DNA of 64,000 nt from Escherichia coli (GTDB taxonomy: Bacteria; Pseudomonadota; Gammaproteobacteria; Enterobacterales; Enterobacteriaceae). The stretch lies in assembly GCF_045037415.1 (NCBI RefSeq), contig NZ_CP173438.1; one strand, given 5' to 3'. The notes below the pieces were generated by a model. It saw nothing but the letters and a program-made list of their open reading frames with translations. It searched no databases and was not told the DNA's origin. Positions 1 to 58,087 of this stretch are shown piece after piece (position 1 is the first letter of the stretch; the number at the start of each line of letters is the position of its first letter). The translations under genes and the position numbers were made by a program.

Positions 1-6026
<6,026 letters not shown>

Positions 6027-12572: not shown

Positions 12573-13958
12573 TTATACATCCGCCGGATCGATACCGTAT
12601 TCCTGGAGTTTATACATCAATGCACGGCGACTGATGCCCAGCATTAAAGCAGTGCGGGTTCGGTTTCCTTCTTGTTGTTCCAGCACTTCCATAATGATGC
12701 GTTTTTCGACGCGTTTAATTTCCTCTTTTAAATTACGCTCACCGACAGGGGCTGTTTTTGCTTCACCAGCATTACAGACTGGCTGACGAATCTGCGGCGG
12801 AAGATCCTCAGAAAAAATGATCGGGCCTGAATTCATCACGACGGCGCGTTCAATAACGTTGGAAAGCTCTCGAATATTTCCCGGCCATGACCAGGCGGTA
12901 AGCAGTGACATTGCCATCGGATCGATGTCGATAATATCGCGCTGATTCTCACTACTGAATTTTTGCAAAAAGTGATTAGCTAACAGGGAAATATCTTCCC
13001 GGCGATCGCGCAGAGGCGGCAGTATTAAATGAATAACGTTAAGGCGATAAAAGAGATCTTCACGGAAGGTGCCTTCTTTCACCATTGCCTGCAAGTCGCG
13101 GTTGGTGGCAGCAATGACGCGGATATCAACTTTTATGGTCTGATGGCCGCCAATCCGTTCAAATTCCCGTTCCTGCAGAATGCGTAGTAATTTGGCTTGC
13201 AGTACCAGCGGCATTTCGCCAATTTCGTCGAGGAGCAGAGTACCTTCGTTGGCACGTTCAAATAATCCCTGACGCAAGGTTTGTGCACCAGTAAATGCAC
13301 CTTTTTCATGACCAAACAGTTCACTTTCGAGCAACGATTCCGGCAGTGCCGCGCAGTTGACTTTAATGAACGGCCCCTTTGCCCGCCGCGAATTGTAGTG
13401 AATCGCTCTGGCAATCAACTCTTTCCCGGTGCCGCTTTCACCGCTAATCAAGACGCTGGCCTGAGAAAGGGCAATTTTGGCGGTGTCTTTGCAGATGTCC
13501 ATCATCGCCGGGCTGTTGGTGAGAATGTGCCCCCATTGCCAGCTGGTGCTCAGTGCCTGGTGCAGATGACGGATCTCTTTTTTCATTGACTGGAGTTGTA
13601 AAGCGCGCTGAACGATTAAATTCAACTCATCGAGATCAAACGGTTTGATAACATAGTCGAAGGCTCCGCAGCGTAGTGCTTCGACGGCGGTTTCCACTTC
13701 AGCATAGGCCGTCATCAGAATAACGGGTGTCCGGGTCTCATGGCTGCGCATCTCCTTTAGTGCCTTGATGCCGTCCATCTCTGGCATGCGGATATCCATC
13801 AACACCACGTCAGGGTGAATATCGGCAAACAGGTGTAATGCTGTGCGCCCGTTGTTCGCACAATGTGTTTCGAATCCTTGTAGTGCAAAAGCGGTGCTCA
13901 GCATACGGCGAACATTATCTTCATCATCCACAATAAGGATGCGATTAATAGCAGTCAT
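12573..13958 (-). CDS. atoC: sigma-54-dependent response regulator AtoC
   Basis: 461-aa ORF; receiver domain (IVDDEDNVR...), AAA+ sigma-54 activator motifs (GESGTGKE, GAFTGA), C-terminal helix-turn-helix. Confidence 0.95.
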   Translation of the reverse strand: MTAINRILIVDDEDNVRRMLSTAFALQGFETHCANNGRTALHLFADIHPDVVLMDIRMPEMDGIKALKEMRSHETRTPVILMTAYAEVETAVEALRCGAFDYVIKPFDLDELNLIVQRALQLQSMKKEIRHLHQALSTSWQWGHILTNSPAMMDICKDTAKIALSQASVLISGESGTGKELIARAIHYNSRRAKGPFIKVNCAALPESLLESELFGHEKGAFTGAQTLRQGLFERANEGTLLLDEIGEMPLVLQAKLLRILQEREFERIGGHQTIKVDIRVIAATNRDLQAMVKEGTFREDLFYRLNVIHLILPPLRDRREDISLLANHFLQKFSSENQRDIIDIDPMAMSLLTAWSWPGNIRELSNVIERAVVMNSGPIIFSEDLPPQIRQPVCNAGEAKTAPVGERNLKEEIKRVEKRIIMEVLEQQEGNRTRTALMLGISRRALMYKLQEYGIDPADV

Positions 13959-15947: not shown

Positions 15948-18797
15948 TTGAAATACCTTGCTTCTTTTCGTACAACCCTGAAAGCCTCGCGCTACATGTT
16001 CAGAGCATTGGCGTTAGTGCTCTGGCTGTTGATTGCTTTTTCATCCGTTTTTTACATCGTTAATGCGTTACATCAGCGAGAATCGGAAATTCGTCAGGAA
16101 TTTAATCTGAGTTCCGATCAGGCTCAGCGCTTTATTCAACGCACCTCTGATGTGATGAAAGAGCTGAAGTACATAGCTGAAAATCGCTTATCGGCAGAAA
16201 ACGGTGTGCTTTCCCCGCGTGGACGAGAAACGCAGACGGATGTGCCTGCGTTTGAACCGCTGTTTGCTGACTCTGATTGTTCCGCAATGAGTAACACCTG
16301 GCGAGGTTCTCTGGAGTCATTGGCGTGGTTTATGCGCTACTGGCGCGATAATTTTTCTGCGGCTTACGATCTAAACCGGGTATTTTTAATCGGCAGCGAT
16401 AACCTCTGCATGGCCAATTTCGGTCTGCGTGATATGCCAGTGGAACGCGATACCGCGCTAAAAGCTTTGCATGAACGCATTAATAAATATCGAAATGCAC
16501 CACAAGATGATAGTGGCAGTAACCTCTACTGGATCAGCGAAGGTCCGCGCCCTGGCGTCGGGTATTTTTACGCCTTGACGCCAGTTTATCTGGCGAACCG
16601 GTTGCAGGCGCTTTTGGGTGTCGAGCAAACCATCCGGATGGAGAACTTTTTCTTACCTGGTACGTTGCCGATGGGGGTTACCATTCTTGATGAAAATGGT
16701 CATACCCTGATTTCGCTTACCGGACCAGAAAGCAAAATTAAGGGCGATCCTCGCTGGATGCAGGAACGCTCCTGGTTTGGCTATACGGAAGGGTTCCGGG
16801 AACTGGTGCTGAAGAAAAATCTGCCACCCTCATCGCTAAGCATCGTTTATTCAGTGCCAGTTGATAAGGTGCTGGAACGCATTCGCATGTTGATCCTTAA
16901 CGCAATTTTGCTGAATGTGCTTGCCGGAGCTGCATTGTTTACTCTCGCGCGGATGTACGAGCGGCGTATTTTCATTCCGGCGGAAAGCGACGCCCTGCGA
17001 CTGGAAGAACATGAGCAGTTTAATCGCAAGATTGTCGCCTCCGCGCCAGTGGGTATCTGCATTTTGCGTACCGCTGATGGCGTCAATATTTTAAGTAACG
17101 AACTGGCGCATACTTATCTCAATATGCTTACGCATGAGGACCGCCAACGGCTGACACAAATTATCTGTGGGCAGCAGGTCAATTTTGTTGATGTCCTGAC
17201 CAGCAACAATACCAATCTGCAAATCAGCTTCGTCCATTCGCGCTATCGTAATGAAAACGTGGCCATTTGTGTGCTGGTGGATGTTTCTTCGCGCGTGAAG
17301 ATGGAAGAGTCGTTGCAGGAGATGGCACAAGCAGCGGAACAGGCGAGCCAGTCAAAATCGATGTTCCTGGCCACCGTCAGTCATGAGCTGCGAACGCCGC
17401 TGTATGGCATTATCGGTAACCTGGATCTGTTGCAAACCAAAGAGTTACCGAAAGGCGTCGATCGTCTGGTGACGGCAATGAACAACTCTTCCAGCCTGTT
17501 GTTGAAAATTATCAGCGATATTCTCGATTTCTCGAAAATTGAATCAGAACAGTTGAAGATCGAACCGCGTGAGTTTTCACCGCGTGAAGTGATGAACCAC
17601 ATCACCGCCAACTATTTACCGCTGGTGGTACGCAAGCAGTTAGGCTTGTACTGCTTTATTGAACCGGATGTGCCAGTGGCCTTAAATGGCGACCCGATGC
17701 GTTTACAGCAGGTCATCTCCAACCTGTTGAGTAACGCCATAAAATTCACCGATACCGGCTGTATAGTTTTGCATGTTCGCGCTGATGGCGATTATCTCTC
17801 TATCCGTGTTCGCGATACCGGCGTGGGGATACCGGCGAAAGAAGTGGTGCGCTTGTTTGATCCCTTCTTCCAGGTCGGAACGGGCGTACAGCGTAACTTC
17901 CAGGGGACTGGTCTGGGTCTGGCGATTTGTGAAAAACTGATCAGCATGATGGACGGCGACATCTCGGTAGATTCAGAACCGGGAATGGGCAGCCAGTTTA
18001 CCGTGCGTATTCCGTTATACGGCGCTCAGTACCCGCAGAAAAAAGGTGTGGAAGGGTTGAGTGGTAAACGCTGCTGGCTGGCGGTCCGCAATGCGTCGCT
18101 CTGTCAGTTCCTGGAAACCAGTTTGCAGCGCAGCGGCATCGTCGTTACAACATACGAAGGGCAGGAACCGACTCCCGAAGATGTGTTAATTACTGACGAG
18201 GTAGTGAACAAAAAATGGCAGGGCAGAGCGGTAGTGACCTTCTGTCGTCGCCATATTGGTATTCCGCTGGAGAAAGCGCCAGGGGAGTGGGTACATAGTG
18301 TGGCTGCTCCGCATGAGCTACCGGCATTGTTGGCGCGTATTTATTTGATCGAGATGGAGAGCGACGATCCTGCTAACGCTCTGCCGTCGACGGACAAAGC
18401 GGTCAGCGATAATGACGATATGATGATTCTGGTCGTGGATGATCATCCGATTAACCGGCGTCTGCTGGCAGATCAGTTGGGATCGTTGGGCTATCAATGT
18501 AAAACCGCGAATGATGGCGTCGATGCGCTTAATGTACTTAACAAGAATCATATTGATATCGTGCTTAGCGACGTCAATATGCCAAATATGGATGGTTACC
18601 GCTTGACGCAACGCATTCGTCAGTTGGGACTGACGTTGCCGGTAATCGGAGTAACTGCTAATGCGTTGGCTGAAGAGAAGCAGCGGTGTCTGGAGTCCGG
18701 TATGGACAGCTGCCTGTCGAAGCCGGTAACGCTGGATGTGATAAAACAGACGCTGACGGTATATGCCGAGAGGGTCAGGAAATCGCGGGAATCGTAG
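15948..18797 (+). CDS. rcsC: hybrid sensor histidine kinase RcsC
   Basis: 949-aa ORF, TTG start; N-terminus MKYLASFRTTLK; histidine kinase plus C-terminal receiver domain (ILVVDDHPINRRL). Confidence 0.95.
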   Translation: MKYLASFRTTLKASRYMFRALALVLWLLIAFSSVFYIVNALHQRESEIRQEFNLSSDQAQRFIQRTSDVMKELKYIAENRLSAENGVLSPRGRETQTDVPAFEPLFADSDCSAMSNTWRGSLESLAWFMRYWRDNFSAAYDLNRVFLIGSDNLCMANFGLRDMPVERDTALKALHERINKYRNAPQDDSGSNLYWISEGPRPGVGYFYALTPVYLANRLQALLGVEQTIRMENFFLPGTLPMGVTILDENGHTLISLTGPESKIKGDPRWMQERSWFGYTEGFRELVLKKNLPPSSLSIVYSVPVDKVLERIRMLILNAILLNVLAGAALFTLARMYERRIFIPAESDALRLEEHEQFNRKIVASAPVGICILRTADGVNILSNELAHTYLNMLTHEDRQRLTQIICGQQVNFVDVLTSNNTNLQISFVHSRYRNENVAICVLVDVSSRVKMEESLQEMAQAAEQASQSKSMFLATVSHELRTPLYGIIGNLDLLQTKELPKGVDRLVTAMNNSSSLLLKIISDILDFSKIESEQLKIEPREFSPREVMNHITANYLPLVVRKQLGLYCFIEPDVPVALNGDPMRLQQVISNLLSNAIKFTDTGCIVLHVRADGDYLSIRVRDTGVGIPAKEVVRLFDPFFQVGTGVQRNFQGTGLGLAICEKLISMMDGDISVDSEPGMGSQFTVRIPLYGAQYPQKKGVEGLSGKRCWLAVRNASLCQFLETSLQRSGIVVTTYEGQEPTPEDVLITDEVVNKKWQGRAVVTFCRRHIGIPLEKAPGEWVHSVAAPHELPALLARIYLIEMESDDPANALPSTDKAVSDNDDMMILVVDDHPINRRLLADQLGSLGYQCKTANDGVDALNVLNKNHIDIVLSDVNMPNMDGYRLTQRIRQLGLTLPVIGVTANALAEEKQRCLESGMDSCLSKPVTLDVIKQTLTVYAERVRKSRES

Positions 18798-23059: not shown

Positions 23060-24196
<1,137 letters not shown>

Positions 24197-24213
24197 TCTC
24201 GATTGATATCGAA

Positions 24214-32274: not shown

Positions 32275-32527
32275 CTGGCAAGTTTGCAGCCTGGTCGTGC
32301 AGGCCAAAAGCGAACGAATTTCAGACATCAGCACCCAACTGAACGCCTTTACCGGCTGTGAAGTTGCTGTCAGCGACGCGCCGAGCGGTCAGTTGATTGT
32401 GGTGGTGGAAGCAGAAGACAGCGAAACGCTGATCCAAACCATTGAGTCAGTACGCAACGTAGAGGGCGTGCTGGCGGTGTCGCTGGTTTATCACCAGCAG
32501 GAAGAGCAAGGTGAGGAAACACCATGA
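32264..32527 (+). CDS. napD: NapA chaperone NapD
   Basis: 87-aa ORF overlapping napF by 11 nt; its stop overlaps the native napA ATG (ATGA at 32524-32527). Confidence 0.9.
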   Translation: MHTNWQVCSLVVQAKSERISDISTQLNAFTGCEVAVSDAPSGQLIVVVEAEDSETLIQTIESVRNVEGVLAVSLVYHQQEEQGEETP

Positions 32528-32563
32528 AACTCAGTCGTCGTAGCTTTATGAAAGCTAACGCCG

Positions 32564-35011
32564 TTGCGGCCGCTGCGGCGGCTGCCGGTTCTCAGCGTGC
32601 CGGGCGTTGCCCGCGCCGTTGTTGGTCAGCAGGAAGCCATTAAATGGGATAAAGCGCCGTGCCGTTTCTGCGGTACGGGTTGCGGCGTTCTGGTCGGAAC
32701 GCAGCAGGGGCGTGTGGTGGCTTGTCAGGGCGACCCGGACGCACCGGTTAACCGTGGCCTGAACTGCATTAAGGGCTATTTCCTGCCCAAAATCATGTAC
32801 GGTAAAGACCGTTTGACGCAGCCGCTGCTGCGTATGAAAAACGGTAAATATGATAAAGAAGGCGAATTTACCCCAATCACCTGGGATCAGGCCTTCGATG
32901 TGATGGAAGAGAAATTCAAAACCGCCCTGAAAGAAAAAGGGCCGGAATCGATCGGTATGTTCGGTTCTGGTCAGTGGACTATCTGGGAAGGTTATGCCGC
33001 GTCCAAGCTGTTTAAAGCGGGCTTCCGTTCGAACAACATCGACCCGAACGCGCGTCACTGTATGGCGTCGGCAGTAGTTGGCTTTATGCGTACCTTTGGT
33101 ATGGATGAGCCGATGGGCTGCTATGACGACATCGAGCAGGCTGACGCGTTTGTGCTGTGGGGCGCAAACATGGCGGAGATGCACCCGATCCTCTGGTCGC
33201 GCATCACTAACCGTCGTCTCTCTAACCAGAACGTTACCGTGGCGGTGCTTTCTACCTACCAGCATCGTAGCTTCGAGCTGGCGGATAACGGCATCATCTT
33301 TACGCCGCAATCTGACCTGGTGATCCTGAACTATATCGCCAACTATATCATTCAAAACAATGCGATAAATCAGGACTTCTTCAGCAAACACGTTAACCTG
33401 CGCAAAGGGGCGACGGACATCGGCTACGGTTTACGTCCGACCCATCCGCTGGAAAAAGCAGCGAAGAATCCGGGTTCTGACGCCTCCGAACCGATGAGCT
33501 TTGAAGATTACAAAGCCTTCGTTGCTGAATATACGCTGGAAAAAACCGCCGAAATGACCGGCGTGCCGAAAGACCAGTTAGAACAACTGGCGCAGCTGTA
33601 TGCCGATCCGAACAAGAAAGTCATCTCCTACTGGACGATGGGCTTCAACCAGCATACCCGTGGTGTGTGGGCCAACAACCTGGTCTACAACCTGCACCTG
33701 CTGACCGGCAAAATTTCCCAGCCGGGTTGCGGTCCGTTCTCCCTGACCGGGCAGCCTTCCGCGTGTGGTACTGCGCGTGAAGTGGGCACCTTTGCTCACC
33801 GTCTGCCTGCGGACATGGTGGTGACTAACGAGAAACATCGTGATATTTGCGAGAAGAAGTGGAATATCCCGAGTGGCACCATTCCGGCGAAAATCGGTCT
33901 GCACGCGGTGGCACAAGACCGTGCGCTGAAAGACGGCAAACTGAATGTTTACTGGACCATGTGTACCAATAACATGCAGGCCGGACCGAACATTAATGAA
34001 GAGCGTATGCCGGGCTGGCGCGATCCGCGCAACTTTATCATCGTTTCCGATCCATATCCGACGGTCAGTGCGCTGGCAGCGGACTTGATCCTGCCGACCG
34101 CAATGTGGGTAGAGAAAGAGGGGGCTTACGGTAATGCCGAACGCCGTACTCAGTTCTGGCGTCAGCAGGTACAGGCACCGGGTGAAGCAAAATCGGATCT
34201 CTGGCAGTTAGTTCAGTTCTCCCGTCGCTTCAAAACTGAAGAAGTGTGGCCGGAAGAGCTGCTGGCTAAGAAACCGGAACTGCGTGGCAAAACGCTGTAT
34301 GAGGTTCTGTATGCCACTCCGGAAGTGAGCAAATTCCCGGTATCCGAACTGGCGGAAGATCAGCTGAACGACGAATCTCGCGAGCTGGGCTTCTATCTGC
34401 AAAAAGGGTTGTTCGAAGAGTACGCATGGTTTGGTCGCGGTCACGGTCACGATCTCGCGCCGTTCGATGATTACCACAAAGCACGCGGTCTGCGCTGGCC
34501 GGTGGTGAACGGTAAAGAAACGCAGTGGCGTTACAGCGAAGGTAACGACCCGTACGTGAAAGCGGGCGAAGGCTACAAGTTCTACGGTAAACCGGATGGC
34601 AAAGCGGTGATCTTCGCGCTGCCGTTCGAACCTGCGGCGGAAGCGCCGGATGAAGAGTACGACCTGTGGCTCTCTACCGGACGCGTCCTGGAGCACTGGC
34701 ATACCGGCAGTATGACTCGCCGTGTACCGGAACTGCACCGCGCCTTCCCGGAAGCGGTTCTGTTTATTCACCCGCTGGATGCGAAAGCGCGCGATCTGCG
34801 CCGTGGCGACAAAGTGAAAGTGGTTTCTCGCCGTGGCGAAGTGATCTCGATTGTCGAAACGCGCGGTCGTAACCGTCCGCCGCAGGGCCTGGTGTACATG
34901 CCGTTCTTCGACGCCGCACAGCTGGTTAACAAACTGACGCTGGATGCGACCGATCCGCTCTCGAAAGAGACGGACTTCAAGAAGTGCGCGGTCAAACTGG
35001 AGAAGGTGTAA
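32564..35011 (+). CDS. napA: periplasmic nitrate reductase catalytic subunit NapA; Tat signal region frameshifted as given
   Basis: 815-aa ORF from TTG 32564 carries the 4Fe-4S motif CRFCGTGC and the molybdopterin domain; the native ATG at 32524 encodes the twin-arginine signal [22 protein letters not shown] in a different frame that stops at about 32641. Confidence 0.85.
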
Positions 35012-55966: not shown

Positions 55967-56992
55967 CTACACCGCCTTATTAGGATCAAATGCGTCGCGG
56001 ACGGCTTCACCAATAAAGATCAGCAAAGACAACAATATCGCCACCGATAAGAAGGCGGTGATCCCAAGCCACGGGGCCTGAAGGTTATTTTTCCCTTGTA
56101 ACAGGAGTTCGCCGAGTGACGGTGAACCGAGCGGCAGACCGAAGCCGAGGAAATCGAGTGAGGTCAGGGTGGTTATCGAACTACATAAAATAAACGGTAA
56201 AAAAGTGAGGGTAGCGACCATGGCATTTGGCAACATATGACGCAGGATGATACTGCGATCGCTGACGCCAAGCGCCTGCGCCGCGCGGATGTAGTCGAAA
56301 TTACGGGTACGTAAAAACTCCGCCCGCACCACGCCGACCAGACTCATCCAGCCAAACAAGACAGTAATTGCCAGCAGCCACCAGAAGTTAGGCTGTACGA
56401 CGCTGGAAAGTAAAATAATCAAAAACAGCGTCGGCATCCCCGACCATACTTCAATAAAACGTTGCCCCCAGAGATCGACTTTACCACCGTAATAGCCTTG
56501 TAGCGCCCCCGCCAGCACACCCATCACGCTGGAGCAGAGGGTCAGCATCAGGCCAAACAGAACTGAGATCCGCGTGCCATAGAGAATGCGCGCCAGCACA
56601 TCGCCGCCATTGGCATCCGTTCCCAGCCAGTTTTGCCGGGAGGGTGGAGAAGGGAAGGGCTTATCGGTAGCAAAGTTGATACTGGTAGCACCAAAGCGAA
56701 TCGGTGCCCACAGTACCCAGCCGTTATTTTCCAGTCGTTGTTTCAGCCACGGGTCCTGATAATCAGCCTGACTTGCCAGCGGGCCGCCAAAATCGCTTTC
56801 GCTGTAGTTTTTCAACAACGGGAAATACCAACTGCCGTCATAACGCACCAGCAACGGTTTATCGTTGGCGATAAGTTCAGAACACAAACTCAAACCAAAC
56901 AAGAGGAGGAAAATCCATAACGACCAGTAGCCGCGACGGTTATGGCGAAAACGCGCCCAACGGGCCTGATTGACGGGGCTGAGTCGCGACAT
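55967..56992 (-). CDS. yejE: ABC transporter permease YejE
   Basis: 341-aa membrane ORF of the oligopeptide-permease family. Confidence 0.9.
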   Translation of the reverse strand: MSRLSPVNQARWARFRHNRRGYWSLWIFLLLFGLSLCSELIANDKPLLVRYDGSWYFPLLKNYSESDFGGPLASQADYQDPWLKQRLENNGWVLWAPIRFGATSINFATDKPFPSPPSRQNWLGTDANGGDVLARILYGTRISVLFGLMLTLCSSVMGVLAGALQGYYGGKVDLWGQRFIEVWSGMPTLFLIILLSSVVQPNFWWLLAITVLFGWMSLVGVVRAEFLRTRNFDYIRAAQALGVSDRSIILRHMLPNAMVATLTFLPFILCSSITTLTSLDFLGFGLPLGSPSLGELLLQGKNNLQAPWLGITAFLSVAILLSLLIFIGEAVRDAFDPNKAV

Positions 56993-58087
56993 TAACGTCC
57001 CTCAAAGTCTATACGCGGATCGACCAGCGTATAGCTGATATCACTGACAATATTCAGCAGCAGGCCAATCAGGGTGAAAATATACAAGGTACCAAACATT
57101 ACAGGATAATCGCGCGAGACGGTCGCTTCGTAGCCCAGTAAGCCAAGACCATTGAGTGAAAACATCACCTCAATCAGCAGCGAGCCGGTAAAAAACATGC
57201 TGATAAACGTCGCCGGAAAACCGGCAATCACCAGCAGCATGGCGTTGCGGAACACATGTTTCCAGAGAATATTTTTTTCACTTACCCCTTTCGCACGTGC
57301 CGTCACCACGTATTGCTTACGCACTTCATCAAGGAATGAGTTTTTTGTCAGCATGGTCAGAGCCGCAAAGCCGCCAATCACTGTCGCCAGCACCGGCAGC
57401 GTGATATGCCACAGATAATCGGTGATTTTCTGATACCACGGCAGCGAATCAAAGTTAGCGGAAACCAGGCCGCGCAGAGGGAACAGATCGAAATAGCTGC
57501 CGCCCGCGAAGAAGACAATCAGCAGGATGGCAAACAAAAAGGCCGGAATGGCGTAGCCGATGATGATAAATGCACTACTCCAGACGTCAAAACGGCTCCC
57601 ATTATAAACAGCTTTGCGAATGCCTAACGGAATCGACACCAGATAGATAATCAGCGTGCTCCACAATCCGAGGGTGATGGAGAACCGGCAGACTGTCTTT
57701 AATCAGCGTCAGCACCGAGGCGCTGCGAAAAAGGCTGTCGCCAAAATCAAAACGGATGTAGTCCCAGAGCATTTTGAAGTAACGTTCGTGGATCGGCTTA
57801 TCGAAACCGTAGCGATGAGTGATCTCGGCGATCACTTCTGGATCTAATCCGCGTCCGCCACGGTAATTACTGTCGCTGATATTGCCGACGCCCGTTTGCG
57901 CATGGCTGGCGCGAACACCTTCACCGCCTGCGCCGGGTAATACTCCGGCATTGCCAAACTCAATGGCGGCGATGGCCTGGTCGACCGGACCGCCAGGCGC
58001 AATTTGCACGATGAAAAAGTTGATAGTGATAATCGCCCATAGCGTTGGGATCACCAGCAACAGACGGCGGATCAGATAAGCGCCCAT
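56992..58087 (-). pseudogene. yejB: ABC transporter permease YejB, interrupted by an apparent +1 frameshift
   Basis: Two ORFs in different frames (57602..58087 N-terminal, 56992..57666 C-terminal) that together give a 364-aa permease; frames meet at about 57680-57686. Confidence 0.8.

Follow-up and report, generated by a model that had tools for sequence, protein, structure and literature searches.

Apparent frameshifts in napA and yejB of an Escherichia coli ST131 sequence lie at Eco31I GGTCTC sites and are probably Nanopore consensus errors

Broken reading frames and differences from EC958

The window analysed here is a 64-kb stretch (64,000 nucleotides) of contig NZ_CP173438.1 from assembly GCF_045037415.1. 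It was identified as Escherichia coli ST131 (O25b:H4), at 99.99% identity to strain EC958. The features considered, among them atoC, ompC, napA, yejM, radD and yejB, are collected in Table 1. As written, NapA reaches a stop codon after 39 amino acids and YejB after 161, and both genes are labelled "frameshifted" in RefSeq for the matching assemblies. Relative to EC958 each carries one surplus T that converts GGTCTC into GGTTCTC. The first-pass annotation had proposed that loss of one base inside GGTTCTC restores either frame, and indeed deletion of the surplus base yields a NapA of 828 and a YejB of 364 amino acids, each identical to the EC958 protein. It had also pointed out that both frameshifts sit in an identical 12-mer. 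This was borne out, as CTGCCGGTTCTC is present in exactly two copies in the window, in codons 20–23 of napA and codons 133–136 of yejB on the opposite strand, against a mean of 0.01 copies expected from dinucleotide-preserving shuffles of the window.

Alignment of the full 64 kb to EC958 revealed five differences in total (Table 1). A single one-base gap separates 25 kb of the window from EC958, JJ1886 and dozens of further ST131 chromosomes, and napA and yejB are intact in all of these reference genomes. Three of the five differences fall within GGTCTC hexamers, in each case at the third or fourth base (T3/C4), and the EC958 counterpart of the window holds only five such hexamers when GGTCTC and GAGACC are counted together. 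The probability of at least three of five differences falling by chance into these 30 hexamer bases is P ~1e-9. Together with the roughly 0.01 expected occurrences of a second 12-mer copy, this upholds the earlier argument that two independent random indels are very unlikely. Two unrelated indels that happened to strike one 12-mer, or alternatively a programmed or slippage-type frameshift signal, would explain the bare existence of two frameshifts and nothing more. At the GGT|TCTC junction there is neither a slippery heptamer nor a simple-repeat tract, only a TT dinucleotide. Furthermore the extra base is not conserved in napA homologues, being absent from napA in 5,403 of 5,420 genomes, as would not be the case for programmed ribosomal frameshifting or phase-variable slippage. 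The probability of chance indels or a frameshift signal is accordingly considered close to negligible.

The third altered hexamer lies in yejM, at a site that the first-pass annotation did not list. The change is synonymous (GTC to GTT, Val397) and the flank of the hexamer, cgtgGGTCTCttt, is a different one. Because this site is affected despite its other flank, and because all five GGTCTC sites are affected when further assemblies are considered, the unit common to both frameshifts is the hexamer GGTCTC and not the 12-mer. The 12-mer consists of GGTCTC, the extra T and five flanking bases that coincidentally match. Its recurrence therefore stands, but the operative motif is the 6-mer. Considered alone, the C to T change in yejM could also be a true SNP that leaves the protein unaltered, GGTTTC being an allele that is naturally common at sites of this kind.

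The two remaining differences, at positions 108 and 3900, were compared by eye with the other known methylation motifs of EC958 and found in none, and they were for this reason treated as ordinary SNPs. Many ST131 genomes have one mismatch to positions 1–4200 of the window and no record in the complete-genome collection matches perfectly; probably one of the two is a lineage SNP and the other is private or an error.

GGTCTC is strongly under-represented in this part of the chromosome, with 5 occurrences in 67 kb (EC958 2,468,000–2,535,000) against about 19 expected from dinucleotide shuffles. Possible reasons for this scarcity are avoidance of restriction sites, deamination of m5C or simply codon usage. 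A recoded or synthetic genome from which BsaI/Eco31I sites had been engineered out was also considered and rejected: the window is natural ST131 sequence and the hexamer is equally scarce in EC958.

Table 1. Features of the window and its differences from EC958 (window coordinates)
Feature	Position	Strand	Remarks
C to T (difference 1)	108		outside GGTCTC
C to T (difference 2)	3900		outside GGTCTC
Intact GGTCTC in atoC	13734..13739	+	unchanged relative to EC958
ompC	~23076–24197		intact, identical to EC958
napA coding region	32524..35011	+	apparent frameshift after Gly22; from translation and RefSeq annotation
CTGCCGGTTCTC, first copy	32582–32593	+	napA
GGTTCTC in napA	32587..32593	+	Eco31I site with probably spurious T between T3 and C4 (32589/32590); codons 22–23; EC958 reads GGTCTC
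Extra T (difference 3)	32589		napA GGTCTC site
yejO remnant	~44922–45844		autotransporter remnant between narP and tRNA-Pro
GGTTTC in yejM (GAAACC on + strand)	46695..46700	-	Eco31I site with C4 read as T (46697); codon 397
G to A (difference 4)	46697		yejM GGTCTC site
Intact GGTCTC at radD	51632..51637	+	directly upstream of the start codon; unchanged relative to EC958
yejB coding region	56992..58087	-	apparent frameshift at codon 135; from translation and RefSeq annotation
GGTTCTC in yejB (GAGAACC on + strand)	57680..57686	-	Eco31I site with probably spurious T (57683); codons 134–136; removal restores the frame
CTGCCGGTTCTC, second copy	57680–57691	-	yejB
Extra A (difference 5; extra T on - strand)	57683		yejB GGTCTC site

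Variation among the Esc sibling assemblies

The window is most similar to the RefSeq assemblies Esc1–Esc30. In the source publication these are presented as genomes of "escaper" colonies recovered from one conjugation experiment in which the plasmids carried CRISPR, and its Table 2 lists E1 as the recipient for Esc1–3 and Esc14–25 (PMC12774652). Its account of the sequencing gives Oxford Nanopore reads and long-read-only assembly with several assemblers followed by an Autocycler consensus; the pipeline description names no short-read or Medaka polishing step (PMC12774652). Native Nanopore data without short-read correction are thus documented for the Esc assemblies, and the same platform is presumed for the window on account of its ST131 identity.

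The extra T in napA was found in 15 Esc assemblies and that in yejB in 15, yet both occur together in only nine. The states of the five GGTCTC sites in the window and in four siblings are shown in Table 2. Esc20 is the assembly closest to the window at the three altered motif sites and differs from it at ompC and at positions 108 and 3900. Esc4, Esc10 and Esc13 have a 16-bp deletion in ompC in common, which serves as a clone marker. When these three were compared pairwise over 49.7 kb, all differences were confined to the napA, yejM and yejB GGTCTC sites, where napA carries either the extra T or the C to T change and yejM and yejB are either intact or carry the extra T. Assemblies of one clone therefore do not reproduce each other at these bases, with intact, substituted and insertion states all being seen.

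Table 2. State of the GGTCTC sites in the window and in four sibling assemblies
Assembly	atoC	napA	yejM	radD	yejB	Other variants
Window	intact	+T	C to T	intact	+T	SNPs 108, 3900
Esc20	intact	+T	C to T	intact	+T	ompC SNP
Esc4	intact	C to T	+T	intact	+T	ompC Δ16
Esc10	intact	+T	intact	intact	intact	ompC Δ16
Esc13	intact	+T	+T	intact	+T	ompC Δ16

This pattern bears on the possibility that the changes are real mutations at a hypermutable site, by which m5C deamination would yield C to T, or Eco31I-associated damage the one-base insertions, and napA and yejB would truly be inactivated. C to T is the expected product of m5C deamination, and Vsr repair of deaminated m5C is limited to CCWGG contexts. 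GGTTTC is moreover a frequent natural allele at such positions in other lineages, and the scarcity of GGTCTC noted above points in the same direction. Against this, siblings with no more than an overnight experiment between them show differences at these sites alone, in three states, which would require many independent events at the same base within few generations; real mutations would not produce repeated changes of three forms at one base among such colonies. Deamination is also unable to generate the extra T, and an error is present in yejM in two siblings. Real inactivation of the two genes is thus held to be highly improbable. Repeated slippage at the motif, which had been offered in the first-pass annotation as an alternative to a systematic sequencing error, fares no better, since there is no repeat tract and one and the same site appears as a substitution or as an insertion in sibling assemblies.

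Neither gene behaves as a genuine pseudogene of the ST131 lineage, the lesions being inconsistent among clone-mates and the reference ST131 genomes intact. Unlike napA and yejB, whose lesions are probably artefactual, yejO has genuinely decayed to a pseudogene in ST131. Its remnant carries the annotations frameshifted, internal stop and truncated both in EC958 and in the Esc assemblies, and strain 98212 has an intact yejO of 2.6 kb.

Further variants were observed in the siblings. The ompC deletion of Esc4, Esc10 and Esc13 removes CTACCTGGCTGCTCAG and shifts the reading frame, and a G to A SNP in Esc20 gives a different OmpC protein. Both look like real variants because neither lies at a GGTCTC site, and they suggest that the Esc series is not one uniform background. 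In Esc20 an inversion of about 8.2 kb, carrying nrdA-nrdB-yfaE-inaA-glpQ-glpT between two copies of IS1, was found relative to EC958 outside the window (Esc20 1,961,299–1,970,985); one of the two IS1 elements truncates yfaL. The inversion is a real structural variant adjoining the left end of the window.

The sites were not affected equally. Within the Esc series the tgccGGTCTC flank shared by napA and yejB was the one most often hit, with the 15 assemblies for each gene given above, and insertions elsewhere numbered three at atoC (tccgGGTCTC), two at yejM (cgtgGGTCTC) and none at radD (tcatGGTCTC). Esc20 is correct at two further GGTCTC sites that are preceded by T. In projects other than the Esc series it was atoC that was affected most frequently. 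The flank thus seems to influence how often errors arise, in a way that varies with the pipeline, and in this small sample it is not the determinant. The CTGCC flank common to the napA and yejB sites may raise the error rate, which lends some substance to the 12-mer as it was originally described.

Eco31I carriage and a survey of complete genomes

EC958 encodes the methyltransferases M1.EcoMI and M2.EcoMI, which match the Eco31I methyltransferases at 100% identity (Forde et al. 2015, PMC4659465). In that study GAG(m6A)CC sites were 100% methylated in EC958 by SMRT sequencing, and GGT(m5C)TC in ST131 was the predicted product of the partner enzyme (PMC4659465). The modified bases, m6A on the bottom strand opposite T3 and the predicted m5C at C4 of the top strand, are the altered positions; the changes thus lie at or next to the modified base of a motif whose methyltransferase is encoded in the genome. 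The locus, with genes for the m6A methyltransferase, the m5C methyltransferase and the endonuclease beside McrBC, is at 4,977,699–4,982,256 in EC958, on GI-leuX, outside the window. Its presence in the window's own genome is likely given the ST131 identity. Among 5,426 complete E. coli genomes 634 carry it (11.7%).

In order to survey these genomes for the insertion, 41-base probes with the extra T at their centre, one for each of the five GGTCTC sites, were run against all 5,426 with megablast. A genome free of the insertion has no 28-mer in common with any probe and is thus unreportable by this search. The probes matched at 50 places in 32 genomes, and between them these genomes have an insertion at all five sites. 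These 32 genomes are not independent, as 21 are Esc siblings; the other 11 come from about seven other projects (C25; 98194 and 98212; A1.S1.126; 439, 446, 447 and 463; two UID strains; ECKH-100). The insertion at the atoC site was found in C25, 439, 446, 447, UID2309220027, Esc12, Esc14 and Esc25, and that at the radD site in strains 463 and UID2404240032. Strain 98212 is affected even though it is not ST131 and is only 97–98% identical in the region of the window. Judged from accession ranges rather than submission dates, all 32 look recent, and no ST131 genome of an earlier accession range among the 634 Eco31I carriers had the insertion. The latter speaks further against real mutation at these sites.

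Carriage of the Eco31I locus was assessed by a set-union count, for which a chimeric query of the 4.56-kb locus and the probes was used. The number of places rose from 676 to 726 upon addition of the probes and the number of records remained at 634, so that all 32 affected genomes carry the locus. Set against the 11.7% background this gives P ~4e-9 even when only nine independent groups are counted. Intact 41-mers were found at 17,597 places, spread over 5,424 genomes with K-12 among them. Among genomes with this same context the insertion was thus present in 32 of 634 Eco31I-positive and in none of about 4,790 Eco31I-negative genomes; that is, it is absent where the methyltransferase is lacking.

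A corresponding census of the C to T form was uninformative, as GGTTTC is a natural allele and was present in 4,291 genomes. It is found at GGTCTC positions in yejB of K-12 and O157 and in napA of Nissle 1917. A change was scored as an artefact only if it was an insertion, or a substitution on which clone-mates disagreed.

The survey also weighs on whether a systematic Nanopore or assembler error could arise from the (CTGCC)GGTCTC context alone, irrespective of methylation. The 11 bases of native context that the napA and yejB sites have in common would favour this, as would the finding that sites preceded by C or G are affected and those preceded by T mostly spared. The occurrence of intact 41-mers in 5,424 of 5,426 genomes and the absence of the insertion from all of the roughly 4,790 Eco31I-negative ones, however, indicate that sequence context alone is insufficient. 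Neither would context alone predict that every affected genome carries a locus found in 11.7% of the collection, or that the changes fall exactly on the two modified positions. An error of context without methylation was accordingly rated as very unlikely.

Consensus error at methylated GGTCTC sites

Taken together, the surplus T of both napA and yejB and the yejM C to T change are very probably consensus errors of a Nanopore long-read-only assembly at Eco31I-methylated GGTCTC sites rather than mutations, with both the Nanopore origin and the Eco31I status of the window's assembly taken from its ST131 identity. The napA and yejB genes are almost certainly intact. This agrees with the first-pass suggestion that basecalling or polishing had erred systematically at a motif that may be methylated: the changes lie on the positions modified by Eco31I, they vary at random among clone-mates and they occur exclusively in Eco31I-positive genomes.

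Such errors could come about as follows. The Eco31I methyltransferases would modify two adjacent positions at every GGTCTC, giving m5C at C4 and m6A opposite T3. The doubly modified dinucleotide may then distort the pore signal so that many reads give C4 as T or as TC, leaving a pile-up that is near 50:50 and probably strand-biased. Assemblers and consensus would settle each site by small random margins as GGTCTC, GGTTTC or GGTTCTC, the insertion arising where a T call and a C call are both retained in the consensus. Flanking bases would modulate the error rate, and this would account for both tgccGGTCTC sites being affected.

A further possibility is that GGT(m5C)TC sites are true in vivo mutational hotspots in Eco31I-positive E. 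coli, with the variation among the escapers, the GGTTTC alleles and the scarcity of GGTCTC being in part real erosion of targets driven by restriction-modification. We regard this as a long shot.

Consensus error at methylated sites has practical consequences for public data. The Eco31I GGTCTC motif is of concern in about 12% of the complete E. coli genomes, ST131, Nissle 1917 and ATCC 25922 among them, and recurrent false frameshifts and SNPs in Nanopore-only assemblies are probably already in RefSeq, in at least 32 complete genomes from five sites alone. The PGAP "frameshifted" pseudogene label is found on napA, yejB and yejM in affected complete genomes, in the case of yejM in Esc4 and Esc13, and the artefacts have therefore already propagated into public annotation. 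With three of five GGTCTC sites wrong in the window, each assembly could contain many spurious pseudogenes and false cgMLST alleles genome-wide, and siblings from outbreaks or experimental evolution could appear to differ where they do not. The motif provides a simple screen, namely GGTTCTC or GGTTTC where relatives have GGTCTC, and shows where methylation-aware re-basecalling or polishing should be aimed. In biological terms there is no new feature here; the value is to curators and users of Nanopore-only assemblies of Eco31I-positive E. coli.

One closely related known system is the Eco31I (EcoMI) Type IIS restriction-modification system of ST131 itself. Its recognition sequence GGTCTC and its modified positions coincide with the altered bases and its locus is carried by every affected genome. 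It would be the biological cause of the modification and not of the sequence change.

The principle is the same as in the Nanopore errors seen at Dcm (CCWGG) and Dam (GATC) sites in E. coli, where a methylated motif shifts the pore signal. GGTCTC differs from these as a motif and is lineage-restricted, at 11.7% of complete E. coli genomes, and generic E. coli-trained models may for that reason be less likely to have learned it.

Methylation-induced errors have been described for R10.4.1 data as strain-specific, non-reproducible and often strand-biased C/T and G/A errors, in which small frequency differences determine the assembled base and which PCR or WGA abolishes (Lohde et al. 2024 PMC11610573; Dabernig-Heinz et al. 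2024 PMC11389150; Liu et al. 2024 PMC11610603). The present case is alike in its strain-specific motif and C/T confusion, in being unpredictable between replicate assemblies and in giving rise to false alleles and pseudogenes. It differs from those reports in the precise motif, GGTCTC, with a predicted m5C and an m6A adjacent on opposite strands. It further differs in that a frameshifting one-base insertion is the most visible change, whereas those papers describe mainly substitutions and the insertion is less documented as the dominant form. In the literature searched, no paper linking GGTCTC, GAGACC or Eco31I to Nanopore errors was found, nor anything relevant on the other affected strains. 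The class of error is thus already known, and what is particular here is the Eco31I motif, its neighbouring modifications, one on each strand, and the prominent place of the frameshifting insertion.
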